From: Escherichia coli
Lineage (GTDB): Bacteria > Pseudomonadota > Gammaproteobacteria > Enterobacterales > Enterobacteriaceae
Reading direction: 5' to 3' (one strand)
NCBI RefSeq assembly: GCF_036507355.1
Contig: NZ_AP027877.1
DNA length: 64,000 nt
Shown: positions 6,569-64,000 of the stretch, in pieces
How the letters are laid out: the number at the start of each line of letters is the position of its first letter
How positions within the stretch are numbered: position 1 is the stretch's first letter
Notes under the pieces: generated by a model
The model's input: only the letters and a program-made list of their open reading frames with translations
Told to the model about the DNA's origin: nothing
The model's database searches: none
Made by a program: the position numbers and the translations under genes

Positions 6569-7994
6569 TAATGCCAGTCAGTTAAGCAACTGACTGGCTC
6601 TTTTTCGGGGCTGTGGGGTATTTCCAGGGCCTCTCCTTTGCCACTCTCGGGAAGGCCCTTTCCCTTCTTGTCGGTAATTTCACAAGTTGTCCCATACTTG
6701 CAAGATCGCGCATCAGCTCCGGTATACGTCCCGGTGAAGCGCCCTGCAATGTCATCAGCATTCTCATCACCATTCCGCATGATTCTGAGAAGCTCAGTTG
6801 ATTTGGCCAGTAACCTTTCAGATGTTCCGCCATTTTAATCATCTGATATCTCACCAGATTATAAGCCAGTAAGACACCCCACAGCTCTTGCTCCACAAGC
6901 TCAGGCTTTTTACTTCTCAGCGTCAGCCTACTCAGTTGCATCGTCTGTTTTATCTCCCTGTATCCCAGTTCGATTTCCCAGCGATGACTGTACAGATCCG
7001 CCATTTCTCCTCCGGGGAAGCGCATGGCGTCCGTCATCGACGTCAGCAGATGGCAGACTTTTCCTTTGCGCGTCACGGTCAGCAGGCGGGCTGTCACCTC
7101 ATTTCCCAGTCCCGGCCACTTTTTTCGTGCCTGCGGGCTGGTTTTCAGCTTCACCAGATGATCGCCTTTACCCAGTTTTCTGATCTCTTCATATTGCGCT
7201 CCCTTTCTGAGAGGGATCATCCAGTGGCGGTGTTCTCCCGCCAGGCTCCAGGCATTTAACAATCCCAGTGAGTAATAACCTTTATCCATTAACGTCAGAG
7301 TGTTATCGCCGGTTTGTTCTATAAGTTGCTCAGCAAGCTCATTTTCGCTGTTCTTCATCGTGCCGAAGGCTGCAGCCGTCAGCAGATGGCTGGTCAGTTC
7401 CATCTGGCAGACCATTTTGACCTGCGGGTAGAGCGCCGGGGTCCCGGCATGTGTCTGGCGAGGGAAGGCTGCATCGTTCTCTGGTGTATCCGGTGTGCGC
7501 CAGAACACACCATCGATGGCCAGCAGGGTCAGGCCGCACCAGTGCGGATGCGGCGTGGCGTTATGCCAGAGCTGCGCTGTTTTCGTGAACACGCGGCGGA
7601 CAGCCTCACTTCCCAGGCGCTGGCGGGCCTGAATAACAGCACTGGGGGCAACGAAGGGGCGATTGCCCGGCAGCATGATGTCCAGGCGATTCACAATCTG
7701 GTGAAGAGGTTCTTTACGCTCAAGCGCCATGCCAACAATACACCAGACCATCATTTCGAGGGGAAGACGGCGCTTGCGTAGCGTTACAGTACCTGATTCG
7801 GCAAGGCAACGAGAGATGAGTTCGGGGTCGAGGTAATCCCCCAGAGAAGTCAGTGGGTTACGCAGAGAATCGTAACGGGATACCAGATCAAGAGCCTGTC
7901 CAATGTGCATAAAAAAATCCGGAAACGAGTGAGCGTTTCCGGATTCTTACACAGCCACTGGATCGGTCAACTGATCCTTAACTGATCGGCATTA
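6569..7994 (-). mobile_element. IS4 insertion sequence (1426 bp), apparently intact, flanked by 12-bp target-site duplication CCCCTTCTGGGG
   Basis: Terminal inverted repeats TAATGCC(A/G)(G/A)TCAGTTAAG at both ends; direct repeat ccccttctgggg at 6557-6568 and 7995-8006; encloses full 442-aa IS4-family transposase. Confidence 0.85.
6582..7910 (-). CDS. insG: IS4 transposase (InsG-like, DDE, IS4 family)
   Basis: 442-aa [53 protein letters not shown]... with YREIK motif region ([14 protein letters not shown]) typical of IS4-family transposases. Confidence 0.85.
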
Positions 7995-31187: not shown

Positions 31188-31436
31188 CAGTTATATCTCC
31201 TCCGATGACGGAAATCGGGGGAGATAATATAAATTCCTGCTTATTGTATTTCTTCATACTACCTGGACAGGTCGTTAATCAGAATTGCGAGCCTGTACCA
31301 CAACCTGCACGAAACCACTGCAACAGCTGTTGAAAAGCCGGAATGTACTCTTCATTGCAAACATTTCAGGGATGAAGTGAAGATGAATTGAGACGTAGTA
31401 TCCACACCAAGCCGGCGTTATCCGGTGAGGCGCAAT

Positions 31437-44820: not shown

Positions 44821-45912
44821 ATGGGATTCAAATGCGGTATCGTCGGTTTGCCCAACGTCGGGAAATCTACCCTGTTCAACGCGCTGACCAAAGCCGGTAT
44901 TGAAGCGGCCAACTTTCCATTCTGCACCATTGAGCCGAACACAGGCGTCGTACCAATGCCTGACCCTCGCCTGGATCAACTGGCTGAAATCGTAAAACCG
45001 CAACGTACGCTTCCCACGACCATGGAATTTGTCGATATCGCCGGTCTGGTAAAAGGCGCATCGAAAGGCGAAGGTCTGGGTAACCAGTTCCTGACCAACA
45101 TCCGTGAAACCGAAGCGATCGGTCACGTTGTTCGCTGCTTTGAAAATGACAACATCATTCACGTTTCCGGCAAAGTTAACCCGGCTGACGATATTGAAGT
45201 TATCAACACCGAACTGGCGCTGGCAGACCTCGACACCTGCGAACGTGCGATTCATCGCGTACAGAAGAAAGCCAAAGGTGGCGATAAAGACGCGAAAGCT
45301 GAGCTGGCGGTCCTGGAAAAATGCCTGCCCCAGCTGGAAAACGCAGGTATGCTGCGCGCGCTGGATTTAAGCGCTGAAGAGAAAGCGGCTATTCGTTACC
45401 TGAGCTTCCTGACGCTGAAACCAACAATGTACATCGCCAACGTCAACGAAGACGGTTTTGAAAACAACCCATATCTTGACCAGGTGCGTGAAATCGCGGC
45501 GAAAGAAGGTTCTGTTGTGGTTCCGGTTTGTGCTGCTGTTGAAGCAGACATTGCCGAACTGGACGACGAAGAACGTGACGAGTTTATGCAGGAGCTTGGG
45601 CTGGAAGAGCCGGGCCTGAACCGTGTGATCCGTGCCGGTTATAAGCTGCTGAACCTGCAAACTTACTTCACCGCTGGGGTGAAAGAAGTGCGTGCATGGA
45701 CCATTCCGGTTGGAGCAACCGCGCCGCAGGCAGCGGGCAAAATCCATACTGATTTTGAAAAAGGCTTTATCCGTGCACAAACCATCTCGTTTGAAGATTT
45801 CATCACTTACAAAGGTGAACAAGGCGCGAAAGAAGCAGGCAAAATGCGTGCAGAAGGTAAAGATTACATCGTGAAAGATGGCGATGTGATGAACTTCCTT
45901 TTCAACGTCTAA
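44821..45912 (+). CDS. ychF: Ribosome-binding ATPase YchF (Obg-family GTPase fold)
   Basis: 363-aa [43 protein letters not shown]... Confidence 0.97.
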
Positions 45913-45971
45913 ATAAAATTTGATGTCTCATGAGGTTTCACTGAATCTCAGAACAACGGTAAAACTCTATA

Positions 45972-45998
45972 AAATCCACGCAATTGCGTGGATTTTTC
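45972..45998 (+). terminator. Rho-independent terminator of ychF; core-genome/island junction lies just beyond
   Basis: Hairpin atccacgcaattgcgtggat followed by TTTTT. Confidence 0.7.
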
Positions 45999-46042
45999 AT
46001 TTCATGATGTCTCAAATCATCCCGTAAGAGCGCTGTCAAAAA

Positions 46043-46094
46043 TGAGTACATGAATGAGTACAACATTCTTCCATCTTCATTTTAAGTGAGTACA
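46043..46094 (+). promoter_or_regulatory. Three direct copies of TGAGTACA (46043, 46055, 46087) upstream of int; candidate integrase arm-type or regulatory sites
   Basis: Exact 8-mer repeated three times within 52 bp, 35-85 bp upstream of the int start codon. Confidence 0.35.
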
Positions 46095-46126
46095 ATAACG
46101 GTATAATAAATAAACAAGGCCCCGTT

Positions 46127-47320
46127 ATGCTCACTGATACACAATGCCGCACTGCCAAACCGAAAGAAAAACTCTATCGACTCAATGATTTCAACGGTCT
46201 CTACCTCGAAGTGAAACCCAATGGTAAAAAGGCTTGGCGTTATCGGTTTAAGCTCAACGGTAAATCCAGCATGTTTGCGCTAGGTGAGTACCCGACGGTC
46301 AAGCTTGCCGAGGCTCGAGAAAAATGCGAGCAAGCGCGAAAGCAGGTTGCGGAAGGAGTCAACCCAGCGCAAGCTCGTCAGTTAGATAAGATTCGTAAGG
46401 TTAACGACGCATCCAACACCTTTGAGCTGATCGCCAAAGAGTGGCTGCAGATGAAAGACTGGGCCGAAATTACCAAAACACGCCGACTGGATATGCTTGA
46501 ACGTGTGGTTTTCCCCTCAATCGGTAAGCTTCCAGTCAGAGAGATCACCCCACACCATATCCTTAAAATTCTTCAGGAAACTGCCAAACGAGGAGCACCG
46601 ACAGTTGCCGCAGAAGCCCGTCGCACCATTTCATCAGTTTTCGAGTTGGCTGTGGCAACGCTTAGAGCTGATAGCGATCCTGTCTGGCCTGTACGCAAGG
46701 CACTTCCGGCGAATAAGACACAGCACAAACAGGCATTGAATCCACAGCAAATCGGGAAGCTATTAAGCTGTTTTGATAACAGTCGCGGCTCATATCAGGT
46801 TAACTATTGCATGTGGCTAATGTGGTGGACGCTGGCGCGACCAGCCGAAGTCACCGAGGCAGAGTGGGCAGAGTTCGATCTTGGTAACGCACTGTGGACC
46901 ATTCCGGCAAGGCGTATGAAAGCTCGTAGGGAACATGTTATTCCCCTTCCTTCCCAAGCCGTCAACATGCTCAAAACACTACAAGGATTAACCGGGCATA
47001 GGCAGCATCTTTTTCCGGGCAGGGATAATCCGCTAGGCCCAATGACATCGCACTCTCTGCGTCAACTACTTAAAAGCCTCGGATGGAATGGCACTTATAG
47101 CCCCCATGCTACCAGAACTACAGGAAGTACGCGTTTAAACGAAATGGGCTATCGACCTGATGCTATTGAGGCCCAACTTGCGCACGCTGATACCAACAAT
47201 GTTCGTCGCACATACAACCATGCAACTTATCTTGATGAGCGAAAGGTTATGATGCAAGACTGGGCAGATAAACTTGAAGGATGGGTAGGAAGCACACACA
47301 GCAATATTGATGTTTCGTAA
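46127..47320 (+). CDS. int: P4-type tyrosine integrase (island integrase)
   Basis: 397-aa ORF with the N-terminal arm-binding-like region typical of P4-family integrases and a C-terminal catalytic region ...HSLRQLLKSLGWNGTYSPHATRTTGSTRLNEMGYRPDAIEAQLAHADTNNVRRTYNHATY (R..H..R..Y). Confidence 0.85.
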   Translation: MLTDTQCRTAKPKEKLYRLNDFNGLYLEVKPNGKKAWRYRFKLNGKSSMFALGEYPTVKLAEAREKCEQARKQVAEGVNPAQARQLDKIRKVNDASNTFELIAKEWLQMKDWAEITKTRRLDMLERVVFPSIGKLPVREITPHHILKILQETAKRGAPTVAAEARRTISSVFELAVATLRADSDPVWPVRKALPANKTQHKQALNPQQIGKLLSCFDNSRGSYQVNYCMWLMWWTLARPAEVTEAEWAEFDLGNALWTIPARRMKARREHVIPLPSQAVNMLKTLQGLTGHRQHLFPGRDNPLGPMTSHSLRQLLKSLGWNGTYSPHATRTTGSTRLNEMGYRPDAIEAQLAHADTNNVRRTYNHATYLDERKVMMQDWADKLEGWVGSTHSNIDVS

Positions 47321-47719: not shown

Positions 47720-49888
<2,169 letters not shown>

Positions 49889-49949
49889 CTAAGCATCACA
49901 GTGGCAGGTCGACAGGGACAAACCTGTGAGTCTGCAGGCTCGACGTTGT

Positions 49950-50290
49950 GACAGAAACAATCGCATCACACATCAACACCACAGCTTCCCGCTTCTGGTC
50001 TGTCGTCAATACTTTCGCCCAAGAACCACCTGAAGCGCCTGAAGCGCCTCCTTATCCGGCATGGCTTCAGCAAGCAGCTTCTTTGAGTCTGGCGTTCTCT
50101 TCCTCAAGCGACTCCAGGTGCTTAACCTCAAGCACCGCCATACTTCTTATGCTATGTGTAAAGAGTGGCATCGGAAATAGCGTGCTTGCAGCAGAGCTCA
50201 CGGGCAGAAACTCCAGCTTCTGCTTCACGGAGAACGCTGATTATCTGTTCGTCGGAAAAACGCTTCTTCATGGGAATCATATTCGGCGTC
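49950..50290 (-). pseudogene. IS3-family OrfA remnant (truncated, internal stop)
   Basis: Minus-strand translation from 50279 gives MIPMKKRFSDEQIISVLREAEAGVSARELCCKHAISDATLYT then a stop, with ...LKSLEEENARLKKLLAEAM... continuing out of frame; no cognate OrfB follows. Confidence 0.55.
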
Positions 50291-50450
50291 AGGGTCAATA
50301 TAAAGGCATTACTAGCATCGGGATGTACTAATCAACGGAGAGCAAGATCACATCCCTAACAGTATGACCAGATAAGCTATTCATAGTAAAAAAATATATC
50401 CACTAACCATCTAGAAGATAAGTCATGATTTTCACGGTAATGACTCCAAC

Positions 50451-50954
50451 TTATTGATAGTGTTTTATGTTCAGATAATGCCCGATGACTTTGTCATGCA
50501 GCTCCACCGATTTTGAGAACGACAGCGACTTCCGTCCCAGCCGTGCCAGGTGCTGCCTCAGATTCAGGTTATGCCGCTCAATTCGCTGCGTATATCGCTT
50601 GCTGATTACGTGCAGCTTTCCCTTCAGGCGGGATTCATACAGCGGCCAGCCATCCGTCATCCATATCACCACGTCAAAGGGTGACAGCAGGCTCATAAGA
50701 CGCCCCAGCGTCGCCATAGTGCGTTCACCGAATACGTGCGCAACAACCGTCTTCCGGAGCCTGTCATACGCGTAAAACAGCCAGCGCTGGCGCGATTTAG
50801 CCCCGACGTATCCCCACTGTTCGTCCATTTCCGCGCAGACGATGACGTCACTGCCCGGCTGTATGCGCGAGGTTACCGACTGCGGCCTGAGTTTTTTAAA
50901 TGGCGGAAAATCGTGTTGAGGCCAACGCCAATAATGCGTGCACTGGCGCGACAT
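50451..50954 (-). CDS. insB: IS1 transposase InsB (produced as InsAB fusion by frameshift)
   Basis: 167-aa [53 protein letters not shown]... Confidence 0.9.
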
Positions 50955-51148
50955 CCGACGCCATTCATGGCCATATCAATGATTTTCTGGTGCGTACCGG
51001 GTTGAGAAGCGGTGTAAGTGAACTGCAGTTGCCATGTTTTACGGCAGTGAGAGCAGAGATAGCGCTGATGTCCGGCAGTGCTTTTGCCGTTACGCACCAC
51101 CCCGTCAGTAGCTGAACAGGTGGGACAGCTGATAGAAACAGAAGCCAC
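50873..51148 (-). CDS. insA: IS1 protein InsA
   Basis: 91-aa [46 protein letters not shown]... Confidence 0.9.
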
Positions 51149-51504
51149 TGGAGCACCTCAAAAACACCATCATACACTAAATCAGTAAGTTGGCAGCATC
51201 ACCTAAGTCTTGAGCCATTATTTCTATAAAATACATGTTAAATCATATTAGAATAGTTTATACGATAATTCGCTTGAAGAAGAAAAACACTATTCTAATT
51301 CAAACATTTTATATTATCAAGAACCATGGTAATTACAGTTAATTTACAGTATCAGTGATGTGGTTTCCAAAAAAGTATGCCCAAACATTTAAATATATGC
51401 CTTCGATAAATGAACTTTAACTCATCAGAATGACTACCCATCAATACTATTGAGTATATGAAGACAATTCACAGTCCCATCTGGCGAATTTTTCAGATGG
51501 CGAG

Positions 51505-54500
51505 TTAAATATCTTCTGGTGATTCCCCCAGATACATCTTACGGTAATGATACACTTCAAAGAATTTCCCCTTGTCTTTGTAACTACTGATAAAGTAGCA
51601 ATGTGTTAAATACTTTAGCAGGATCTCATTACCTTCAGTTTTGTGAACTTTTGCTCGTTTGGTTTTATCCGCAATCAAATTATATTCTTCCGACACGAAG
51701 GCCATAAGCGCACGATTGATGTATTCAAAAGGCAGTTCTTCACACTCTAAAAGATGATTCAAAAACACAAGTCGAGTGTCATCTTCCGAAACATTAAGAA
51801 GGAGTGCTATACTGACTTTACTATTTAGGCTTATATGGTCGAAGAAACTATTGGTATAGTGCGGCCAGAGAACATTGATGATTGAAACTTTAGTCGTCAA
51901 CTCTATATCGTCATCATTGAGCACAAGCTCAATAAGTTCATTATCGAAATCTTCGTCATCTTGCAGATAAAACTCAATATTATTTTCAAAAACAGCAAGG
52001 TTGTTTCTAATCATAAGCGACAGACACTCATTGAGGCCCTTGCGACGTTGTCCCTCATAAATGCTGAGTACGTCTTCATAGAGCGCTTCTGACAGCAAAA
52101 CTCTGTTGCTCTCACAAAGTGCTTTAAATTTTGTCAGTGGCAGGTCACTGATTACCTTGTCGATACTTACAGGCAGCACGCTGATCAACTGTGCATATAA
52201 CGCGTCTGGCTTATCCGCTGCTGAAATGATGTGATTCACAACATTATCAATAGACTCCTCAGGAACACTGACCTTATGGCCTGAAAGCACCTCTGGATGG
52301 TGAGCAAAAAACGCCCACAATATCTCATCGTCGACATCGGTATACATGTAGTTAAATATGTTATCCCAGTTGGCAGCGACACGCCCATGTTTAAACAAGA
52401 GGTCATAAACAGTGAATGACGCACCCTCAACTACCGATAGCCTGATATTTTCAACTGTCGACAACTGCTGAACTTCAAAATCCATGTTTTCAATTATAAT
52501 TTCTTTGGAACGCTCAGTAGCGTCTGAATTAATTAGTGAAATAACGGATCCAACGCTTTCCTCAGAATGAATGAAATATTCCACAATAAACATCTCAAGG
52601 TTTGTATTTACAGCCTCAATTAAGCATGGGACTTTTTCACTCATAATTAAGGTATATGGATTGCGCGATAGTTCCTCAACATTCTTTCTGTTATTAGAGT
52701 ACGCATTAAACAGTGCAGTGAGGTTATTAATATTAAATACATACAGAAAATTCTCTGCGATAAACTTCACCAACGTACGTTCACTTTCATCGTTAGCTTC
52801 ATTGACGCTATCGAATACAATATTGAGCTCTTTTAATTTTATGCTGAATGACGCAATCTCATCGGGTCGTATGTATGTAAACAACGTAGTGTCTGTTTTT
52901 AATTCATGCAGATAATCCTGAACAGCACTTTGTCGGGTAATGTTTTCTATCAGACCAAAACGAAGTAATGACACAAATAACTGCTGATAAAAATCATCAT
53001 CAGAGTCAATGTCACGGTAAGTACTCATCGCCGCCATCAATTTACCCAATGTCTTTTCATCGCTTAAAATTAAATTAATTAAGTCATGATAGTCATCATT
53101 ACTAAATTCATAAAAATACGTCCGCATAGTGCGAATGATTAAGCCATGTGAGCAATAATTAAATAAATGAATAAAAACATCACGGGCAAAACCAGCTCGG
53201 CAGTTGATCAAAAAGCTAATTATATGCGGATGAAAAATCCCCTCGTAATATTTAAATGATAGCGACTCCATTTTATCTACAACATTGGAAACGTTATTCA
53301 GATGAATATCTTTTAACTCCTCAAAATTCACCTTAGCAGCGACCTTCTGGATATAAACATTATCTGATTTACTTAATGCACCTGCATGGAAGATAGAGCG
53401 ATATTGCATGTAATCCTGCTCAATATATCCATTTGACAACATGAAAAACAACAATTCCATATTGAAATTAATCGCTGAAGGCTTGGATGCATTTTTATTT
53501 CCCTTATCGTCAGTTGATGCAACATTAAGCAACCACTCACTCAATTTCGCTAAGGTTATTTTTTCACATAATTCATGAAGTGATAGGCCATTTCGTTGAT
53601 TAAGAACACGCTGTGTGTTTAAAATATTTTTAGATAATTGCTCAACGGTTTTTTGGTTCTTATCTAAAATAACTGGTGAGCGTTTGTTATATTCACGTAA
53701 ACTCTCAGCTCGCTTATTATGTGGAATTTGGAAGGTATCTTGATATTCATACCCGTTTCTTGAATATGTGATAGCTATTCCGGATGGAAGCTCTCTGTTC
53801 AGAAAATCACAAAACAATGATTCATCCCCACAAAGTTCAACAAAGCTCCAGCTACTCCCAACTTGCCCATACTTATTATGGCTTATATAAAACACTGTAT
53901 TCGATTCAATTTGTTCAGGAAGATAACGCCTTAGAATTTCAACCCTCAGATTTAAACTGGATGTTTGCAATTCCTTTTGTACTTTCACCAACTTTTCTTT
54001 CTGCTGAGAAATCTTTATTTCCAAATCTTTAAAATACACGTCATGTAGCGTTCTCTTAGAGTAAGCATTAACTATTCTGTATAAAAAACCATCCTGATTA
54101 TCAAGCAGAGTGAAATCTTTGGTACATAAATTTTTATACATTATCAAAGAAAATAACTTCACATCAGAAATCTCACCCGTAATTAATTTTTTAAAAATAT
54201 TAAATTCATTTATAACATTATTCATCACCCGCATATCAGTCAGGTAAAGGGATACTTTCTTGAAAAACTGCTCTTTATCTACCGAATTAAAGTTTATAAC
54301 TTTACTACTTAATATGTCATACGCATTCTCACTATCTACTGCAGGTATAATCGGCACAATAAAATCAAAAAATTTTGTTTGTGATTCAGCATCCTTTAAT
54401 AAATCCTCCCTGACTGCAAAAATAAATTTAATCGGTTTCTTTTCCAATAGTCTGGAATTGTTTATCACTTGATTTATTTCACGGAGCTTAATAAAAATAT

Positions 54501-55407
54501 GACCATTGTTTAAACGGTCTAAATCTTCAAATACGACAACTCTATACTTTGTTTTAAGGAAGAAGTAAACAATCTCATCAATATACAAATTTAGCAGAGA
54601 AGCTGTATTCTGTTTTTCCGCCGCAATTTCTGCCTTTAAGAGATTTACTTTATCAAGAGCAATTTTTCTGTCAAAAAATCCTATCCGATAAAAACGAGAC
54701 AGCAGATACCAACAAATGATAAATGATAGCGAACCGATACATCCCCAACGCCATACCGGATGTATCGCAATGAAATGACTCACCGCTGACGGTAATGAAA
54801 ACGTGTTGATAATTTTTTGAGGAAACAACAATGTAGTGACAACGATTGTCAGTATGAGAACAAAAAACAGCAAACAGGATGTTATTAGTATTTGCCCAAC
54901 ACTTCGGGTGTGAATGCGCTCTACCCGCGAATCTGGCAGCGTACCTTTATCCACTTTGTATAAAATCTGCTGTAATATGCTGTATTCAATGCTTTGTTCT
55001 TTTGATAAAGACTCGGAACTTTTTAGTGTCTCATCCGTTTCAAAGTTTGCCAGTGAGATAATCACGTGCTCATCCGCTGGTTTTAAACTTGTAAACCTGA
55101 GCCAATATTTCAGGCGGTGCCACAACCGCTTTCGCCCTTCAATTTTTTTAAGGTATGAGAGAATAACCGAGCTTTTACCCGCGCCATAGGACCCCGTGAT
55201 GGCGATGTTCTTCACATCATCCCGGCTGAGGGCATAATCCAACGCCTTAAAATAGGGTTGATATCCCTCTTTATCAGGATCGACAATCGGTGTTAGCGTT
55301 TGGAATTCCCTTTCCGTTCCTGAATTGTTTTCTGAAGTAACCTGAAGCCTTGCGACTGTTTTATGCAACCAGTCTGCGATCGTTTTCAACCCGAAAGACA
55401 GCGCCAT
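51505..55407 (-). CDS. Large (1300 aa) KAP/YobI-like P-loop NTPase with transmembrane hairpin inserted between Walker A and Walker B; long C-terminal region of unknown function. Candidate defence/conflict protein
   Basis: Walker A ITGSYGAGKSSV (about aa 70-81), two hydrophobic helices (about aa 171-195 ILITSCLLFFVLILTIVVTTLLF and 215-236 HPVWRWGCIGSLSFIICWYLL), Walker B-like VVVFEDLDR (about aa 290-298); Lys/Asn/Ile/Phe-rich composition; gene is conspicuously AT-rich versus flanks. Confidence 0.75.
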   Translation of the reverse strand: MALSFGLKTIADWLHKTVARLQVTSENNSGTEREFQTLTPIVDPDKEGYQPYFKALDYALSRDDVKNIAITGSYGAGKSSVILSYLKKIEGRKRLWHRLKYWLRFTSLKPADEHVIISLANFETDETLKSSESLSKEQSIEYSILQQILYKVDKGTLPDSRVERIHTRSVGQILITSCLLFFVLILTIVVTTLLFPQKIINTFSLPSAVSHFIAIHPVWRWGCIGSLSFIICWYLLSRFYRIGFFDRKIALDKVNLLKAEIAAEKQNTASLLNLYIDEIVYFFLKTKYRVVVFEDLDRLNNGHIFIKLREINQVINNSRLLEKKPIKFIFAVREDLLKDAESQTKFFDFIVPIIPAVDSENAYDILSSKVINFNSVDKEQFFKKVSLYLTDMRVMNNVINEFNIFKKLITGEISDVKLFSLIMYKNLCTKDFTLLDNQDGFLYRIVNAYSKRTLHDVYFKDLEIKISQQKEKLVKVQKELQTSSLNLRVEILRRYLPEQIESNTVFYISHNKYGQVGSSWSFVELCGDESLFCDFLNRELPSGIAITYSRNGYEYQDTFQIPHNKRAESLREYNKRSPVILDKNQKTVEQLSKNILNTQRVLNQRNGLSLHELCEKITLAKLSEWLLNVASTDDKGNKNASKPSAINFNMELLFFMLSNGYIEQDYMQYRSIFHAGALSKSDNVYIQKVAAKVNFEELKDIHLNNVSNVVDKMESLSFKYYEGIFHPHIISFLINCRAGFARDVFIHLFNYCSHGLIIRTMRTYFYEFSNDDYHDLINLILSDEKTLGKLMAAMSTYRDIDSDDDFYQQLFVSLLRFGLIENITRQSAVQDYLHELKTDTTLFTYIRPDEIASFSIKLKELNIVFDSVNEANDESERTLVKFIAENFLYVFNINNLTALFNAYSNNRKNVEELSRNPYTLIMSEKVPCLIEAVNTNLEMFIVEYFIHSEESVGSVISLINSDATERSKEIIIENMDFEVQQLSTVENIRLSVVEGASFTVYDLLFKHGRVAANWDNIFNYMYTDVDDEILWAFFAHHPEVLSGHKVSVPEESIDNVVNHIISAADKPDALYAQLISVLPVSIDKVISDLPLTKFKALCESNRVLLSEALYEDVLSIYEGQRRKGLNECLSLMIRNNLAVFENNIEFYLQDDEDFDNELIELVLNDDDIELTTKVSIINVLWPHYTNSFFDHISLNSKVSIALLLNVSEDDTRLVFLNHLLECEELPFEYINRALMAFVSEEYNLIADKTKRAKVHKTEGNEILLKYLTHCYFISSYKDKGKFFEVYHYRKMYLGESPEDI

Positions 55408-55765: not shown

Positions 55766-56638
55766 CTACTTACGGGTTCTCACCCCAGAGGTAAATGTCA
55801 GTCCAGTAAACCCCATCTCATCCTGCTTACATAACGCCCGTGCCAACAGAACAGGCGGCAGCCTGTGTTTGGGGGTACGGCGTTTTCCTGCCTCATCAGG
55901 ATAAGGTCTTACTTCCAGCCACATCCCCTTGAAGCAGTATGTTACCTGCTCGTCAAAATCCTTCAGCTTCTGGCTTTTCATCGGCCGACTGATTATCCCC
56001 GCTCTGGCCCGCATATTTTTATCCCTCTTCATCGCCTTTCTTAGCGTTTTGAGCGCCCCCGGCTCTCTCGGCATCAGTAGATGCAGGTGAGGCATCCAGC
56101 GCTGGATATCGGTGTGAAAATCCAACTCGTAGTCACCCACTATTTTGCCCGTAAATCCGGCTCTTTTTATCATCTTGTAGACCCGCTCCCGGAACTTCTT
56201 ATGATCCCAGCGGCTGATCTCGTCTTCTTTCAGCATGGCATCGTAATAAACCAGCGTAACCACTCTGTACGCGCCCTTAGAGGCCCTCAGTGGGAGCAAT
56301 TCAGTCAGCTTACGTAACCTGTGCAGGCGGAAACACTGTGGGCAGGCCGCGCTACCACATTGATGTTCTGGCATACAGCCCTCCAGTTTTCTCTTTAACC
56401 GAAACATCCGCCCTCGCCACTTTTTGTGTGCTTTTCTGACTTCTTTGCTCTCATCCTGATTATCATTCCTGTTCTGCCGCACAGCCTTTCGTATTGCTTT
56501 TATGCGGTACAGGCGTTCCTTCTCCATTTGCTCCCGGGTTTCAAAACCCGGAATGGTAAGAGCTAACTTTTCCAGTTGGCGCTCTTCTTCTGTCAGTGAT
56601 GCATACACTGCTCGCGCAATACGGTTTGTACCAAACAT
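55766..56638 (-). CDS. Putative HUH-type replication initiation protein (inovirus Gp2-like), island-encoded
   Basis: Contains HLHLL (His-hydrophobic-His) motif in WMPHLHLLMPREP and a Cys cluster CGSAACPQC; start placed at Met 56638 directly after the alpA stop (track ORF overlaps alpA by 50 bp). Confidence 0.45.
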   Translation of the reverse strand: MFGTNRIARAVYASLTEEERQLEKLALTIPGFETREQMEKERLYRIKAIRKAVRQNRNDNQDESKEVRKAHKKWRGRMFRLKRKLEGCMPEHQCGSAACPQCFRLHRLRKLTELLPLRASKGAYRVVTLVYYDAMLKEDEISRWDHKKFRERVYKMIKRAGFTGKIVGDYELDFHTDIQRWMPHLHLLMPREPGALKTLRKAMKRDKNMRARAGIISRPMKSQKLKDFDEQVTYCFKGMWLEVRPYPDEAGKRRTPKHRLPPVLLARALCKQDEMGFTGLTFTSGVRTRK

Positions 56639-56639
56639 A

Positions 56640-56834
56640 TCAGCAACCTCCTCTGGTCCCACGGGAAGCAATCCACTCATTGACTTCACTTTCCAGCCAG
56701 GCCACCGCTCGTCCTCCTGTCAGGGATTTTTGGCGTGGGAAAGTCCCTTTTTCAATCATCCGGTACAGTGTGGCGCGGCTCACCGCACAGCGTTCCAGCA
56801 CAGCCTGAATTTTGACCAGTTTCATATCATTCAT
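56640..56834 (-). CDS. alpA: AlpA-family phage/island transcriptional regulator (MerR-like HTH)
   Basis: 64-aa ORF MNDMKLVKIQAVLERCAVSRATLYRMIEKGTFPRQKSLTGGRAVAWLESEVNEWIASR, the AlpA signature. Confidence 0.8.
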   Translation of the reverse strand: MNDMKLVKIQAVLERCAVSRATLYRMIEKGTFPRQKSLTGGRAVAWLESEVNEWIASRGTRGGC

Positions 56835-57760: not shown

Positions 57761-58708
57761 TTACCAGCAACATAGCGCCCTGGAGGCTCTGTCTACAGCC
57801 TGCCTGCCCCTACAGTCATAGCGTGTGGTCGTGGATATATCCGCATGTCCTGCCAACTGGCGCACCACATTAATGTCCACTCCCTGCTCCAGCAGGCGGG
57901 TGATGAATGTCCGTCGCAGGTCGTGGGGGGTGAAGTAATCCACTTCTGCAGCTTCGCGTAACTGCGCCAACAGCCCTGTAAGACCCGTGGTGGTAAGCCG
58001 TTGTCGTCCTGGCTGCCCCGCACGACTGATGCGACTGAACAGCGGCCCGGCATGATACCCCCGGAGCTTCAGCCATCGCCGCAGTTGCATGCAGACTTTT
58101 CCGGAAAGGTGGATTTCCCGGATTTTGCGCCCCTTTCCCTGCCTGACAATCACGATCCCCGTGGCTACATCTATATCTCCCACGTCCAGGGCTACCAGTT
58201 CGGCGGCACGCAGACCTGCGCCACACAGAAGCAGCAAAATAGCCCGATTACGCTGGCAACGTACAGCGTCAGCCTTTCCGGCCGCCGCCAGCATGGCCCG
58301 AATTTCGGTCCTGTCCAACGCCCTGCCCAAGCGGGTGGCACTGCCAGTGACACGCCTGACTGAACGTATGCGCGTCAGTCTGTCAGCATCCAGAATCCCC
58401 ATACTGAAAGCCGCTCCGGCAACCGATTTCAGCGCCGACAGCGCCATGTTCACCGTGGCAACAGCATAGCCCTCATCCAGCAGCACCGAGCGTACCCGCA
58501 TCACGCTCGTGTAGTCCAACGTATGCCAGGGGTAGGTGTCGGGCTTCGCCCCCGGACGGAGGATACCGGCACATCGTCGGAGTAAGCTTTGCATCCCCCT
58601 GCGCCCGGCTGGCGTCAGGCTTGCCAGCCACAGCAATGCTGGGTTGATGGAGAGGGCATTTTGCGGGTGGACAGATGCCGCGCGTTTACCATTGCGGCTC
58701 GTGGTCAT
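57761..58708 (-). CDS. Tyrosine-type site-specific recombinase (XerC/XerD-like), GC-rich
   Basis: 315-aa ORF with catalytic region ...FTPHDLRRTFITRLLEQGVDINVVRQLAGHADISTTTRYD (R..H..R..Y) and LCGAGLRAAELVALDVGDID box; visibly GC-richer than neighbouring island genes. Confidence 0.7.
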   Translation of the reverse strand: MTTSRNGKRAASVHPQNALSINPALLWLASLTPAGRRGMQSLLRRCAGILRPGAKPDTYPWHTLDYTSVMRVRSVLLDEGYAVATVNMALSALKSVAGAAFSMGILDADRLTRIRSVRRVTGSATRLGRALDRTEIRAMLAAAGKADAVRCQRNRAILLLLCGAGLRAAELVALDVGDIDVATGIVIVRQGKGRKIREIHLSGKVCMQLRRWLKLRGYHAGPLFSRISRAGQPGRQRLTTTGLTGLLAQLREAAEVDYFTPHDLRRTFITRLLEQGVDINVVRQLAGHADISTTTRYDCRGRQAVDRASRALCCW

Positions 58709-58784: not shown

Positions 58785-59405
58785 TCAGCGTTTTTTCACA
58801 CCATAATGCTGAAGGTAGCGATTCAGGCTCCGACCAGCGCCAGTCTCAAAATTCCATGTCCGCCAGATAAGCTGCCCCACTGTGTCGCGTATCACCAACC
58901 GGAAGTGGGTATGCAGGTCATCCTCAATGGCGACATTTTTATACGTCGCAACCACAGCCTCTGCTTCCAAACGAGTAAACGAATCTGGGGGCAGTTGTGG
59001 CGTCTGTATTGTGGGCTCTGGTGCTGCGCGGTCAGGACGTGAATGCCGTCCCTGTGTGATGTGACTGACGGCTTGGTAACTGCTCTGCCTCAGAAGTCCG
59101 GTGGTCTTCCTTGCCCGGAGAATATCAATGGAGGTAATGTGCGGAGACTGGGGGATAAAGCTGACATTACCCTGGTCTGTACGTACCAGGTCGTACTTTT
59201 CAACAATAGAATTCAGGGCCTCCGTCAGTGATATCTCTGCATCAATGTATGCCTGAATGGCACCTTTCCCGCTAAACGGCGTGTCGCTGAGAGTGAGTCC
59301 GTAGTGCTTCTCCAGCAAGTAAGCCAGCAGAGTGTGCCAGACATCAGCAGGGGACAGGCAACACGATAGTGTCCGATTTGGTGAGACCGGTTGTTTTTTC
59401 ATCAC
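58785..59405 (-). CDS. CbtA/YeeV-family type IV toxin homolog with about 80-aa C-terminal extension
   Basis: First ~125 aa align by eye to CbtA (..[35 protein letters not shown]..); ORF continues to 206 aa. Confidence 0.65.
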
Positions 59406-59511
59406 TGTATTCTCGCGGATAACATTGAAAAAGACGCGCGAACGTGAACATCAATTGAACGTCCGCACTTATTGGAATCCGTCGGCCAGACGGGCAAAAA
59501 GTGACTTCCAT

Positions 59512-59895
59512 CTACTGTCCCGAAGACCGGGAAGCCATGGGATAAATGGCGATATATACGTAGCCACAGGAGCCGAGCGTGTTAGCCTCGCAGATCAGCC
59601 CTTCTACCTGTAGCGTGATCCCCTTCGCCCTGCGCGGGTCCAGTTCACCGGACAGCAGAATGCTTTCCATCTGCCTCATGAGCAGCGGAAATATCTGGTC
59701 CAGATGGCGTGCGTCTCTGTCGCTGAACGTACCGGTGAATTCAGCCCGGTCAGCCAGAAAATGCAGGCAGCCGCCCTCCTGCACCAGACGCGCCCCGAAG
59801 CATGGCGTCACGTTGCACTGTAGCCCCCACAGATCTGTGGGTGGCGTATCGTAGTCTTTCAGATCTGTCATGTCAGGTGTCCTCAAAAGTCGCAC
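59512..59895 (-). CDS. CbeA/YeeU-family antitoxin homolog
   Basis: 127-aa ORF with ..LWGLQCNVTPCFGARLVQEGGCLHFLADRA..HLDQIFPLLMRQ..SGELDPRR.. matching the CbeA family pattern; immediately upstream of the toxin. Confidence 0.7.
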   Translation of the reverse strand: MRLLRTPDMTDLKDYDTPPTDLWGLQCNVTPCFGARLVQEGGCLHFLADRAEFTGTFSDRDARHLDQIFPLLMRQMESILLSGELDPRRAKGITLQVEGLICEANTLGSCGYVYIAIYPMASRSSGQ

Positions 59896-59931
59896 TGCCA
59901 GTGCATCAATCTGGCAATGCTGGGTAGTTCT

Positions 59932-60369
59932 TCAGCTTTCCCACAGCACGCGCGTGGTGTAGACCCCGCTGGCGTAGTAGCTCAGGAAGTTACGCTCCCA
60001 CAGGCTGTAAAGCGCCCTTACTTCCGTTAGAGGCAAATCCCCCGTACAGTAGTGCCAGACATAGCCCTGCGACCAACTGATATCGATGATTTTCTCCAGC
60101 TCCGGGTAGACCGTGCCGACATAGCCAAAATCGGTGGCGTAGTCCAGGCACCACTCATCGCCCTGATGAATTAGCCGGATCTCCACCGGGTGATAACCCC
60201 CCCGCTCCACACTGTAGTCCGGGTCCCGGAAGTTGAATGTCACGGCGGTGATCCGATGTTTATGGGCGGGTATTTCGCCCGCCTCTGCCATCAGCAGTTC
60301 GTACAGTTGCAGACTGACAGGCAGCATAAAGCCTGCCGGCTGAATAACGGCATTGATGTTCAAGAGCAA
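59932..60369 (-). CDS. Hypothetical protein between radC-like gene and antitoxin
   Basis: 145-aa ORF, no motif recognised; occupies the position of the small DUF987 gene in CP4-like modules but is about twice as long. Confidence 0.4.
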   Translation of the reverse strand: MLLNINAVIQPAGFMLPVSLQLYELLMAEAGEIPAHKHRITAVTFNFRDPDYSVERGGYHPVEIRLIHQGDEWCLDYATDFGYVGTVYPELEKIIDISWSQGYVWHYCTGDLPLTEVRALYSLWERNFLSYYASGVYTTRVLWES

Positions 60370-60454
60370 AACCTCAGTGTTTACAGTTTAAAAAAACGTG
60401 AAGGGATAAAGCGGACGTGTCTTAGCGTGGATAATGTGTATTAAACCAGGTAAC

Positions 60455-60943
60455 TCACAGTAGCCCGTGTTCAGCGAAAGACCAGGCTTTGTCGCCTCCC
60501 ACAATGAGATGGTCGGTCACGCGGATATCCAGCAACGCCAGTGCGTCTGTAATTTTTTGGGTAATGAGTTTATCGGCCTGGCTCGGTTCAGGCTCACCAC
60601 TGGGATGGTTATGCACCAGTATCACAGCAGCAGCGTTGTGCGTCAGTGCCAAGCTGACTATTTCGCGGGGATAAACCATCGTCTGGCTCAGCGTACCGAT
60701 AAACAATGTCTGGTAGCCGAGAATATGATGTTGCTGTGAAAGCATTATCACACCAAAAGATTCACGGTTTTCAAGCGCCAGCTTCATCACCAGCCACTGA
60801 CGTACATCTTCAGATGAGGTGATTTTTCGGCGATTGCGAAACTGGCGGGTCAGCAATGAATGGGCAAACCGGATAATCTGTTCGCGGGTAACCGGCTCCA
60901 GCGTCTGATAATGACCGCTACGATCACTTGCGATAAACGTCAT
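60455..60943 (-). CDS. RadC-like JAB/MPN-domain protein (YeeS/YfjY-like)
   Basis: JAMM motif HNHPSGEPEPSQAD and C-terminal DHLIVGGDKAWSFAEHGLL; start set to Met 60943 to avoid overlap with upstream ORF (alternative 60997). Confidence 0.7.
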   Translation of the reverse strand: MTFIASDRSGHYQTLEPVTREQIIRFAHSLLTRQFRNRRKITSSEDVRQWLVMKLALENRESFGVIMLSQQHHILGYQTLFIGTLSQTMVYPREIVSLALTHNAAAVILVHNHPSGEPEPSQADKLITQKITDALALLDIRVTDHLIVGGDKAWSFAEHGLL

Positions 60944-60965
60944 GATGTACTCCTTACCTTTTAGT

Positions 60966-61589
60966 TCAGAATTCACGTTCAACAAAGTAAATGGCATCCG
61001 GCAGCAACGTATGGCGCTTCAGCTCAGGTTGTACTGAAAACGTGTCCTTTCGCTGGCTGCGTATCCCCAGGCTATCAAACAAAAACAACCGGGTAGCATC
61101 GGTACGAACCACCACTGACCAGTGCCATGTGGTCCCCATAATCACCACGCGCTGCGCCTGATTCTCCGGTGAAGCCAGCCAGTCGCTGATATCATGAAAT
61201 ATTCGGTGAGTTCTCAAGGTTCGATAACGGAAGGGAGTATGAAAATAGAGGGGATAATGTTGGGCGTAATGCCCTCTCAGCAGAACATCTGCTATCAGGT
61301 GGTCCATCTGCTCTTCATCCAGGCCAAGCGTCAGGAGATCAAATAAGTCCCATCGTCGCTTATAGCTGCTTAGCAGGCGGTACATTAATTTTTCCCGCCT
61401 TACCCTGCCGTCATAGAGGTAACTCAGGGTATTAATCAGGCTGTAGATGCCACACAAATAGTCATGCTGTCCCTGGCGGGACGCATGAACGTCTCGAGGA
61501 AGTGTCATTGTAAATTTCCGGGATAAGTGATGGCTGTGAACCAGCCGGAATGGTGGTGATACAGTGGCTGAGCGCATGATGGCAGCCAC
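60966..61589 (-). CDS. Hypothetical protein with conserved-looking Cys and His (possible cysteine-hydrolase fold)
   Basis: 207-aa ORF; LCGIYSL near N-terminus and HWSVVV near C-terminus; sits where CP4-like elements usually carry an anti-restriction gene but does not resemble ArdB/KlcA by eye. Confidence 0.4.
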   Translation of the reverse strand: MAAIMRSATVSPPFRLVHSHHLSRKFTMTLPRDVHASRQGQHDYLCGIYSLINTLSYLYDGRVRREKLMYRLLSSYKRRWDLFDLLTLGLDEEQMDHLIADVLLRGHYAQHYPLYFHTPFRYRTLRTHRIFHDISDWLASPENQAQRVVIMGTTWHWSVVVRTDATRLFLFDSLGIRSQRKDTFSVQPELKRHTLLPDAIYFVEREF

Positions 61590-61665
61590 TGTATAAATTA
61601 TAACAAAATCAATACATTAATGCAAGTGATTCTTGTTATCACTTATCCAGCGACTCCTTCACTTG

Positions 61666-62046
61666 TTACTGGTTAACGTCTCCTTCAGACAGGTCCCTTG
61701 CAACCTGAGCCAGAGCCTGCTGCAAAAGTTTATCCCTAGAGGCCGGTTTCATGGTACGGAACAACTGTATCCACAGGTTAAGCTGCTCGTCTGCTGAAGT
61801 ATCTGCCGCATCCCGCTCACTTTTCAACGCCATCCCTGCCGCGCTGATATGGTACAGAAACCCCTTCCCACTGGTGCGTTTGCGGCGGATTTCCGGATGT
61901 AGGGCTGTGAGCTTTTCCAGACGTAGCCGCGCCCATTTCGCTGTGCCCGGCATTCCTTCCATTCCGGCAAACTGCTCTGCTGTAAGCCACTCCCCACTGT
62001 CCGTCATTCCGGCATCACAGGGCTCAGTCATCTGTTCACTGCTCAT
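61666..62046 (-). CDS. Hypothetical acidic protein, possible DNA-binding regulator
   Basis: 126-aa ORF MSSEQMTEPCDAGMTDSGEWLTAEQFAGMEGMPGTAKWARLRLEKL...; the left end of IS5 abuts its 5' region. Confidence 0.4.
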   Translation of the reverse strand: MSSEQMTEPCDAGMTDSGEWLTAEQFAGMEGMPGTAKWARLRLEKLTALHPEIRRKRTSGKGFLYHISAAGMALKSERDAADTSADEQLNLWIQLFRTMKPASRDKLLQQALAQVARDLSEGDVNQ

Positions 62047-62077
62047 AAAATTTCACCTCTTATCAAAGCGTTAGTTA

Positions 62078-63272
<1,195 letters not shown>

Positions 63273-63416
63273 CTAAATGAGCGCAAATAACCACAAAAGG
63301 AACTTGATAACTTCCCTTTGTTTGCTTTTAATATCTCCGGTACTAACAACCCGGAGTGAATACATTGAGTAACTCAACAGATTCGCAAAAAAAAGCGAAG
63401 TAAGGGAAGTGCTGTT

Positions 63417-63647: not shown

Positions 63648-64000
63648 ATGTCGACCACCATTACTGAAGTAACGGAATGCTTTGAGTACCTTTTTAGTTC
63701 CCTTTACCGGAAAGCATTTGTCAAAACCCTGCGCCTTAACGAATGCAGTGAACGGGAGTTGCTACCGCTGGTACGCTGCTACCTGCTGGGTTGGTTTGCC
63801 GACAGCGTCTCACCGGAAGTCCGGGGGAAACTGCCCGGCAGTATCTCCGGGCATGGCTATATTGATTTCGTCATTGACGATGTGGCAGTGGAGTTCGCCG
63901 TCCGTAAGCCAGGAGCCGCCCGTTCTGCACTGTCAGCCTCAGTCAACAGCACGGAGGTAAAGAAACTGATGAAGTATGACGGCAAAGCCCTGCTGGTACT
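63648..64000 (+). CDS. Hypothetical protein, 5' portion (ORF runs off window end)
   Basis: ATG at 63648 opens MSTTITEVTECFEYLFSSLYRKAFVKTLRLNECSERELLPLVRCYLLGWFADSVSPEV... with no stop before position 64000. Confidence 0.4.
   Translation, partial: MSTTITEVTECFEYLFSSLYRKAFVKTLRLNECSERELLPLVRCYLLGWFADSVSPEVRGKLPGSISGHGYIDFVIDDVAVEFAVRKPGAARSALSASVNSTEVKKLMKYDGKALLV

Follow-up and report, generated by a model that had tools for sequence, protein, structure and literature searches.

A 30.2-kb defence island behind ychF in Escherichia coli with a probably ychF-specific integrase

The 64,000-nucleotide stretch of Escherichia coli DNA analyzed here (the window), identical to the sequence of strain ET881 (NZ_CP100890.1), very probably holds the left end (attL and the integrase gene) of a 30.2 kb integrative defence island with an integrase that specifically uses the 3′ end of ychF. 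The anatomy of the junction, the direct repeat, the crossover position, the linkage between integrase and ychF across taxa and the occupied/empty polymorphism of the site were observed directly. The features are collected in Table 1; the island extends past the end of the window (position 64000). An earlier sequence-only reading, which had proposed a genomic island directly downstream of ychF with a P4-type integrase and no tRNA target, is partly supported overall.

Table 1. Coordinates of the junction and island features (window positions).
Feature	Position	Strand	Basis or remarks
ychF, target gene	44821..45912	+	ORF list; left intact after integration
attL core (crossover region) TTCAACGTCTAA	45901..45912	+	last three ychF codons and stop codon
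Island-borne P′ arm (new ychF 3′UTR and integrase upstream region)	45913..46126	+	conserved architecture
Hairpin 1	about 45930-45951	+	within P′ arm
Perfect 26-bp palindromic terminator-like hairpin	45971-45996	+	within P′ arm
Three candidate arm-type sites	46042..46094	+	ATGAGTACA 46042-46050, ATGAGTACA 46054-46062, GTGAGTACA 46086-46094
Probable ychF-specific tyrosine integrase, P4/CP4/IntSXT class, 397 aa, intact	46127..47320	+	Pfam, NCBIfam, PDB, neighbourhood survey
IS debris: frameshifted IS21/IS100kyp (istAB), transposase fragment, IS1	47879..51203	-	RefSeq annotation; IS1 inverted repeat pair I1
AT-rich cargo: 1300-aa YobI-like/KAP P-loop NTPase, PADLOC "Tmn"	51505..55407	-	Pfam, PADLOC
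AlpA-family regulator/excisionase candidate (56640-56834), then uncharacterised 290-aa protein	55766..56834	-	Phage_AlpA 3e-16
Second tyrosine recombinase, 315 aa, XerC/IntP2-like, without arm-binding domain	57761..58708	-	Pfam, NCBIfam
Backbone block: DUF905, truncated CbtA toxin, YeeU antitoxin, DUF2787, RadC/JAB, two uncharacterised proteins	58785..62046	-	RefSeq; Pfam DUF2787, RadC
ISKpn26 (IS5 family) insertion	62075..63276	+	annotation; inverted repeat I14
attR core	window-equivalent 76090-76101		L003 31400-31411 = NZ_CP100890.1 2761899-2761910; adjoins ycgV, outside the window

The ychF junction and the attachment core

Precise empty sites, with the target gene preserved, exist in related genomes in a K-12-type and a B2-type form, and everything from 45913 to the end of the window is missing from K-12 and from the B2-type empty site. 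A horizontally acquired island does lie directly downstream of ychF, as had been proposed, and its genes, being absent from the island-free genomes, are not core. The accessory content that had been listed (IS elements, AT-rich cargo, toxin-antitoxin, a second recombinase) is present by annotation, Pfam and GC. The sequence-only reading had placed the end of the core at the ychF terminator, but core DNA stops at the stop codon (45912) and the terminator (45971-45996) is brought by the island. The YchF product (WP_000505866.1) is, by annotation, identical in island-free K-12 and island-bearing ET881. The proposed lack of a tRNA target was borne out: ARAGORN called no tRNA or tmRNA at the junction (its sole calls were tyrT/tyrV, at 14.8 kb) and an E-value scan of 45700-46300 against Rfam gave no family near its gathering score, neither scan revealing a hidden RNA target at the junction.

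The 12-mer TTCAACGTCTAA occurs exactly twice in the 49.9-kb locus analyzed around the island (L003), where 0.01 copies were expected, at position 1211 (window 45901) and at 31400, i.e., 30,189 bp apart. A matching direct repeat had been anticipated beyond the window, and the attR copy 30.2 kb away provides it. In ET881 the 12-mer is embedded in an imperfect repeat of ca. 100 bp with 85% identity between attL and attR; the attR copy and the next 1,099 bp are 99.9% identical to K-12, and the attL copy is a variant. Strains 998 and AVS0151 carry related islands; their native flank is unrelated to that of K-12 and matches in type the empty site of APEC E18006. Their attL and attR have only (G)TTCAACGTCTAA, 12-13 bp, in common, and at attR the native B2-type flank resumes directly after the TAA. 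The comparison of the window with Salmonella record CP101356.1, in which the same island is present, gave 78-89% identity per 100 bp upstream of the core and 99-100% over 1,390 bp downstream of the boundary, with the last host-type mismatch at -13 from the end of the stop codon.

The 12-mer also repeats at the unit boundaries of tandem arrays in two further loci (L036 and L048), and attP-like P-O-P′ junctions are found at tandem copies in these two and in L029 and L065. Providencia carries the core variant TTTAATGTGTAA. No inverted core-type binding sites were identified flanking the 12-mer. The possibility that the 30 kb of ET881 are two tandem ychF islands was ruled out, as only two att copies, and no third one splitting the region, are present in this strain.

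The integrase, its upstream arm and its target

The gene following ychF had been read as a P4-type integrase, and it does have the full three-domain architecture of the P4/CP4 type: Arm-DNA-bind_3/DUF4102 (Pfam PF13356, 1.2e-26, residues 2-85), Phage_int_M (PF22022, 5e-25) and Phage_integrase (PF00589, 4e-21). The N-terminal domain matches the "CP4-like integrase" domains of PDB 3ju0 and 3jtz (1e-17 to 1e-18), and the match to NCBIfam PRK09692 (4.6e-79) is below the model's own cut-off. The candidate catalytic motifs ARP..E, RMK, HATR, LAHAD and TYNHATY align with their counterparts in the second integrase of the island, with R, HxxR, H and Y conserved between the two; none of the PDB matches covered the catalytic domain. 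The ORF is uninterrupted and full length and attR was found, i.e., this is not an integrase fragment lacking its partner site.

Relatives of this integrase were surveyed in 68 loci from Enterobacterales and some betaproteobacteria (e.g., Kosakonia, Yersinia, Pectobacterium, Serratia, Pantoea, Hafnia, Providencia, and Rivihabitans). In ca. 56 of them, representing more than 50 species, ychF ends ca. 214 bp upstream of the integrase, and the relatives adjoining ychF are 53-96% identical to the one described here. Loci without this linkage either stopped at a contig end, held the second copy of a tandem array or encoded an outlier of 33% identity. Among 5,422 complete E. coli genomes the integrase was found at ychF in 628 (11.6%), the site being empty in the rest. 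Besides, a relative of 56% identity is found on an IncP plasmid of Pseudomonas veronii, with the same layout and different repeats. A plasmid-borne attP was also considered and rejected, as the record with the apparent plasmid copy, although labelled as a plasmid, consists of chromosomal Salmonella DNA.

One could argue that these islands are fixed remnants in which the integrase is an inactive passenger, and that they spread only by homologous recombination or transduction of their flanks. The heavy IS load and truncated cargo would fit this explanation, as would the lack of conjugation or phage genes in the island, and the exact P arm is present in 23 E. coli genomes spread over diverse hosts, which is compatible with flank-mediated exchange. 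However, the integrase is intact and highly conserved, with 92-96% amino acid identity across genera, as against only some 80-89% for the ychF DNA of these genera. Salmonella and E. coli have elements of 99-100% identity that begin abruptly at the core, something that the exchange of flanks cannot explain across genera, and tandem arrays exist. We consider this explanation unlikely. Spread within E. coli could nevertheless have proceeded partly via homologous recombination of the flanks. Moreover, the ET881-type copy itself may be immobile, given its disruption by IS21, IS1, and IS5 insertions and its truncated RdrB, Dsr1, and CbtA genes; the related island of AVS0151 is free of IS.

The same P′ arm architecture, with 214 bp between the stop codon and the start of the integrase, is found in loci of more than 25 genera. 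Its RNA folds with -24.5 kcal/mol (z = -4.27), the consensus structure shows a few compensatory changes and the terminator stem is almost invariant across genera, beyond what a terminator alone would need. A simple promoter and terminator scan of 45800-46200 called neither an integrase promoter nor a terminator; with the scanner silent and the hairpin folding strongly, the terminator is assigned from structure and position only. The candidate arm-type sites further downstream correspond to the motif RTGAGTAYA, of which L003 has 8 copies (0.98 expected). The P′ arm has three of them and the stretch 60-80 bp inward from attR has two; all of these read on the + strand, and each island end has a pair with a spacing of 12 bp. 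The candidate sites are conserved in the cross-genus alignment.

The near invariance of the terminator stem could also suggest that the crossover takes place in or just after the palindrome (45971-46004); the ca. 100 bp that separate stop codon and terminator at attL would then belong to the host. A 37-bp block, TATAAAATCCACGCAATTGCGTGGATTTTTCATTTCA, is identical in attL, attR and K-12, and with such a crossover the spacing between arm sites and core would be more typical. We find this very improbable, because the attR of 998 and AVS0151 has no terminator copy and the B2-type flank abuts TTCAACGTCTAA; furthermore, the high Salmonella identity starts at the stop codon and not at the terminator, and it is the 12-mer that the tandem units of L036 repeat.

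The tRNA or tmRNA 3′ target typical of this integrase class is not what we find at the junction, where the core sits in ychF. The sequence-only reading had taken from the class that P4-like integrases normally recombine into the 3′ ends of tRNA or tmRNA genes, and had suggested an unusual attB or a secondary site. The premise often holds but is too narrow, because trmE, dusA, yicC (MGI elements) and guaA (GIsul2-type) are well known protein-gene targets in the same broad class. The suggestion itself was not upheld: the 3′ end of ychF is the regular, dedicated and already catalogued target of this lineage in more than 50 species. A one-off accidental insertion by a tRNA-specific P4-type integrase into a pseudo-attB behind ychF is hardly credible. 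Such enzymes do often use tRNA or tmRNA genes, and a second P4-type integrase stands beside a thrW fragment at the far end of the island. A single accident would not account for the linkage at the same spacing throughout the surveyed species and the 628 E. coli genomes, nor for the precise identical junctions in independent backgrounds, and attL has no tRNA-like sequence. In other words, the island very probably lies directly after ychF because this widespread integrase lineage recombines into the last 12 bases of the gene.

We envisage a circular element whose attP would run from a P arm with two candidate arm-type sites over the core TTCAACGTCTAA to the P′ arm and then the integrase gene. 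Within the P′ arm, a copy of a ychF-type 3′UTR that has a terminator-like hairpin of its own would precede three candidate arm-type sites. Strand exchange inside the 12-bp core, identical to the last three codons and the stop codon of ychF, would lead to insertion. The coding sequence of ychF would be kept exactly, its 3′UTR and terminator would be supplied by the island and the native downstream DNA would be moved to attR, 30 kb away beside ycgV. We infer that the ychF-side integrase catalyzes the exchange and that the RTGAGTAYA repeats serve as its arm sites, and the AlpA-family protein is a candidate excision factor.

Island contents and the right end

The Tmn gene (GC 33-39%) matches Pfam YobI-ATPase at 1.3e-96 and, at full length, PADLOC Tmn at 4e-222. 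The other PADLOC matches among the cargo were RdrB (RADAR), Dsr1, and OloA/B (Olokun-like), and related islands carry DarTG, RADAR, retron Ec67, Zorya, and a type I RM system. Some of the genes form a conserved backbone: strains 998 and AVS0151 have the pair of AlpA and the 290-aa gene in their islands too, and the 315-aa recombinase is shared by the copies of ET881, 998, AVS0151, and Salmonella. No mobilisation module (oriT, mpsAB, relaxase) was recognisable in the island. No polymerase domain was detected in the island proteins scanned and no piPolB is annotated, so that membership of the pipolins was rejected.

At the right end there is an intact 398-aa P4-type integrase, facing inward 305 bp from attR. 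That this enzyme inserted the whole 30-kb block, with the ychF-proximal integrase as cargo, has next to no probability. The perfect 49-nt thrW 3′ fragment beside it gives the canonical order of tRNA followed by integrase, and its identity to the ychF-side integrase is no more than 38%. The related ychF islands of 998 and AVS0151 lack it and still share attL and attR with the island described here, and the repeats flanking it (ATACGGGC) differ from the RTGAGTAYA of both island ends.

The E. coli ychF islands have a conserved fragment of the tRNA-Thr gene thrW (positions about 28-69) in the P arm, ca. 95 bp from the core; in ET881 and ET826 this is exactly where a CP4-6-type integrase lies, together with Olokun, Dsr1, Zorya, and RM cargo. 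No distal thrW repeat delimiting a nested element was found in either of these strains, and the inner end of the nested thrW-type element is replaced by IS1. In K-12 the ychF 3′UTR and terminator are 85% identical to the P′ arm of the island, and they are missing from B2-type strains. The K-12 flank past the terminator was compared with the arm sites and the integrase, giving a local alignment score of 18, which did not exceed that of shuffles (mean 16.7, maximum 28), and tblastn found nothing there. It is conceivable, albeit doubtful, that the P-arm fragment is a docking site for thrW islands and that the K-12 ychF 3′UTR and terminator are the domesticated relic of an ancient island. If the docking idea were true, the ychF element would be a platform growing by recruitment of other islands.

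Relation to known islands

Among the cryptic islands of E. coli, CP4-57 is located at ssrA and CP4-6 at thrW. These CP4 islands and the P4 satellite have in common with the ychF island the integrase domain architecture and the backbone genes AlpA, RadC, YeeU/CbtA, and DUF905; as here, the integrase gene is beside attL and points away from the target. Unlike them, the target described here is a protein-coding gene and there are no P4 replication or capsid-hijack genes. SGI1 (3′ end of trmE), the MGI (yicC), GIsul2-type (guaA), and dusA islands also target the end of a housekeeping gene and restore its coding sequence, but the gene is another one in each case, the ychF island has no recognisable mobilisation module and carries phage defence genes instead of antibiotic resistance. 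The trmE and dusA cases are covered by 10.1101/2021.06.18.448947, and the yicC and guaA ones also figure in the hotspot list of PMC10121019. Enterobacterial pipolins (PMC11551731) have a similar layout, with an IntSXT-type integrase at att, an IntP2-like recombinase, an excisionase-like gene and DUF2787, and they are likewise bimodular, with a conserved core and variable defence cargo. However, they integrate in a tRNA gene, and the pipolins integrated at ychF have large serine recombinases and belong to Gram-positive bacteria (PMC11551731).

The position itself has been recorded before. The interval ychF-ycgV is E. coli defence hotspot #22 in S1 Table of Hochhauser et al. (2023; PMC10121019), without tRNA and occupied in 99 of 1,231 genomes. 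Chromosomal position, lack of tRNA and defence cargo are the same as here, and the occupancy (ca. 8%) is comparable with the 11.6% found by us. In the parts of PMC10121019 consulted, the hotspot is defined by its flanking core genes, with neither an att site nor a crossover position nor the specificity of an integrase given for it; these three are worked out here. In addition, Supplementary Table 8 of Mageeney et al. (2020; PMC7192596) lists ychF with the top attB sites of TIGER/Islander, the example that it cites for ychF being a pneumococcal prophage, from a different bacterial lineage. The supplement of Integrase-On-Demand (2026; PMC12884075) gives the attB CTTCCGCTTCAACGTCTAAGCGGTAGCCT, which contains TTCAACGTCTAA, with many "Y-SXTArm" integrases labelled ychF. 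These target the same gene end and belong to the same class, with an SXT/P4-type arm domain, the likeness being one of attB and class label; the entries are database calls, e.g., from the Pseudomonas genome record CP009974.1. As for a ychF integrase or attB in the main texts, we found only Gram-positive cases, the relevant records being in supplementary tables.

With its target site already catalogued, the finding is real but ordinary, and the island is a clear-cut case of something already known. When genomes are annotated, a P4-type integrase right after ychF should be taken as the sign of a bona fide ychF-specific island whose left boundary is the ychF stop codon, the apparent ychF terminator belonging to the island. 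The integrase/attB pair is a ready candidate tool for site-specific insertion at a conserved housekeeping locus because of its precise core, arm-site motif and wide host range, and the Integrase-On-Demand approach already uses pairs of this kind. As to the biology, this is one more integrase-only defence island.

Ends of the ychF island

As the sequence-only reading had it, ychF is followed by a P4-type integrase with no tRNA at the junction. The 397-aa ORF contains Arm-DNA-bind_3, Phage_int_M and Phage_integrase, i.e., the complete architecture of a P4/CP4/IntSXT-class tyrosine integrase, and solved "CP4-like integrase" domains match its N-terminal domain. ARAGORN detected only the tyrT/tyrV pair at 14.8 kb in the window, and a permissive Rfam scan of 45700-46300 gave only sub-threshold hairpin matches.

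E. coli ET881 (NZ_CP100890.1) is identical to the window, and its record was read beyond the window end as a 49.9-kb locus (L003, window position minus 44690). In K-12 the ychF stop codon lies 768 bp from ycgV, a gene displaced 30 kb further on in ET881. At the ycgV-side end (attR), the K-12 sequence restarts at L003 31400 with the 12-mer TTCAACGTCTAA and continues at 99.9% identity across 1,099 bp. The same 12-mer forms the end of ychF at attL (L003 1211, window 45901-45912), and these are the only two copies in the 49.9 kb (0.01 expected). The proposed island is real and 30,189 bp long, and the matching repeat that the same reading sought at the far end is present outside the window. Both copies are surrounded by an imperfect direct repeat of ~100 bp (85% identity) that contains a perfect 26-bp palindromic hairpin, AAAATCCACGCAATTGCGTGGATTTT. 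Since the attR copy is of the K-12 type and the attL copy is a variant, the island came with a ychF downstream region of its own.

Features of the ychF island in the window and in ET881 (L003, ET881 locus)
Feature	Coordinates	Strand	Remarks
ychF	44821..45912	+	ORF call
Integrase, 397 aa, uninterrupted ORF	46127..47320	+	ORF call
YobI-like/KAP P-loop NTPase, 1300 aa, 33-39% GC	51505-55407	-	PADLOC Tmn, end to end, 4e-222
Second P4-type integrase (outside window)	L003 29899..31095	-	38% identical to ychF-side integrase
tRNA-Thr (thrW) 3' fragment, positions 28-76, P arm (outside window)	L003 31259-31307 (NZ_CP100890.1 ~2761758-2761806)	-	ET881
attR core (outside window)	window-equivalent 76090-76101		

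Position of the crossover

Three independent sequence comparisons agree in placing the crossover inside the 12-mer. One is provided by APEC E18006 and some other E. coli, in which the sequence past the ychF stop codon is wholly different and ycgV is missing. Related islands occur in this background in strains 998 and AVS0151; their attL reads ychF-TTCAACGTCTAA and then the island-type 3'UTR, their attR reads P arm (the island DNA beside attR)-TTCAACGTCTAA and then at once the B2-type flank, and the two ends have merely 12-13 bp in common. The second is Salmonella enterica CP101356.1, with the same island in the chromosomal narK-ychF region, in which every 100 bp before the stop codon matches the window at 78-89% and the 1,390 bp after it match at 99-100%, with -13 as the last mismatch on the upstream side. 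Finally, tandem arrays in other taxa have the 12-mer at every unit boundary, among them an array of 2-kb integrase-only units in a betaproteobacterial MAG, and attP-like P-O-P' junctions were found in Kosakonia cowanii (L029) and Providencia (L065). A crossover in the palindromic terminator is therefore excluded by the 998/AVS0151 flanks, the Salmonella copy and the tandem arrays. Synteny had been thought to end at the terminator, which is wrong, as the exchange maps to the last 12 bp of ychF and the terminator region is island-borne.

The Salmonella record is labelled as a 322-kb plasmid (pIndS104-CTX) and holds Salmonella chromosomal narK...pth-ychF plus the island at 127440-168618; it is either a replicon derived from the chromosome or a misassigned assembly. 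Its island shares 99-100% identity with the E. coli copy, evidence that the element recently passed between genera. The MAG (CALMFQ010000433.1, L036 73-3999) has two tandem units of ~2.07 and ~1.86 kb behind ychF, each lying between copies of the core (G)TTCAACGTCT(G/A)A and consisting of integrase and arms alone; they are minimal elements of the ychF-integrase family.

ychF as the target of the integrase

A scan of a single genome from each species found relatives of the integrase at 68 loci. In approximately 56 of them the integrase starts ~214 bp after the end of ychF, the spacing seen in the window, and both linkage and spacing are kept down to ~53% integrase identity. The linkage is not confined to Enterobacterales: it is also seen in Rivihabitans (Betaproteobacteria) and in two MAGs with no label beyond Pseudomonadota/proteobacterium, whose ychF has just ~70% identity. 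The loci lacking it fall at contig ends, form the second unit of a tandem array or are outliers at 33% identity. Among 5,422 complete E. coli genomes, 628 have the integrase at ychF. By these sequence criteria the 3' end of ychF is a dedicated primary attB, and the earlier interpretation stands for the island, the integrase type and the lack of a tRNA, but not for an "unusual or secondary site". Most likely, and we hold this with high confidence, a ychF-specific tyrosine integrase would recombine attP with attB in the ordinary way, inside the terminal 12 bp of ychF. An integrase relative with 56% identity on an IncP-type conjugative plasmid of Pseudomonas veronii (NZ_CP142043.1, L077 3780-4000) has the same upstream layout, a hairpin terminator and then three direct repeats, with a different repeat, ACCGGGTAC.

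A survey of E. coli defence islands lists ychF-ycgV in its S1 Table as hotspot #22, without tRNA and occupied in 99 of 1,231 genomes (PMC10121019), TIGER/Islander counts ychF 26 times and places it in its top 95 attB sites (PMC7192596, Supp. Table 8), and the Integrase-On-Demand supplement gives the attB CTTCCGCTTCAACGTCTAAGCGGTAGCCT with >10 "Y-SXTArm" integrases labelled ychF (PMC12884075). This attB contains the 12-mer core of the island. Insertion at ychF was therefore already catalogued. Protein-gene 3' ends are well established targets of this integrase class, e.g., SGI1 at trmE and the dusA islands (10.1101/2021.06.18.448947). No description of an island-borne 3'UTR/terminator, an arm-site motif or a thrW fragment in the P arm was seen in the texts searched.

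Arms, second integrase and cargo

The layout of the 214 bp from stop codon to integrase is conserved across genera in the alignment. It comprises a small hairpin, whose consensus structure shows a few compensatory changes, a palindromic terminator-like hairpin that hardly varies (RNA fold z = -4.27), the tail TTTTCATTTCA and three copies of RTGAGTAYA. Two further copies lie 60-80 bp inside attR, with the same 12-bp spacing as at attL, and the motif occurs 8 times in L003 (0.98 expected); we regard these copies as candidate arm-type binding sites. A simple promoter/terminator scanner made no call in the arm region. The 26-bp palindrome AAAATCCACGC-NNTT-GCGTGGATTTT (window 45971-45996, alignment A1 columns 62-87) is almost invariant in island copies from >25 genera, and the 3'UTR positions beside it vary freely. 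It may also be a protein-binding site, because its conservation exceeds what a terminator stem needs.

The empty ychF downstream regions of E. coli are of two unrelated types. The K-12 type (L001 7114-7218) is ~85% identical to the island P' arm beside attL (window 45913-46020), with an identical palindromic hairpin and then ycgV; the B2 type (L074 5114-5520) differs in its terminator, contains a 58-aa ORF and lacks ycgV. The K-12-type flank may be what is left of an old ychF island, but no homology to the island survives past the hairpin.

The second P4-type integrase adjoins, in the canonical tRNA-then-integrase orientation, a perfect 49-nt tRNA-Thr 3' fragment, for which thousands of genomes have matching annotated tRNA-Thr genes. 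This integrase, of the CP4-6 type, is intact beside the fragment in ET881 and ET826 and comes with Olokun, Dsr1, Zorya and RM cargo; a distal thrW repeat was looked for in both and not found. P arms of the 998 and AVS0151 types have a degenerate fragment in the same place without the second integrase (42 nt, 95% identity, L073 46653-46694 in 998; more degenerate, L075 ~7128-7166, in AVS0151). The fragment may have been where a nested thrW-specific island docked, or may be a relic of such an island.

By annotation, the ychF-side integrase is followed by a frameshifted IS21 element, a transposase fragment and IS1. The 1300-aa Tmn match is the sole intact recognisable defence gene in the window's part of the island. 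The conserved backbone runs through an unknown 290-aa protein, AlpA, an unknown protein, a 315-aa XerC/IntP2-like recombinase, DUF905, truncated CbtA, YeeU, DUF2787 and RadC, with an IS5 element next. Past the window come an RdrB (RADAR) fragment cut by IS1, a Dsr1 fragment, Olokun-like OloA/OloB and the second integrase. The RdrB deaminase remnant is the C-terminal 254 aa (L003 20690-21454) and the Dsr1-like one the C-terminal 592 aa (L003 22756-24534), both IS1-truncated, the SIR2 part of the latter being retained in ET826. IS1 copies in inverted orientation at L003 5746-6513 and 21457-22224 could flip the 15 kb that they enclose. The cargo of relatives includes DarTG, complete RADAR, retron Ec67, ABC-three-component genes, Zorya and a type I RM system. 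In the ychF island itself neither piPolB nor any conjugation or phage gene was found; it is an integrase-only defence island.
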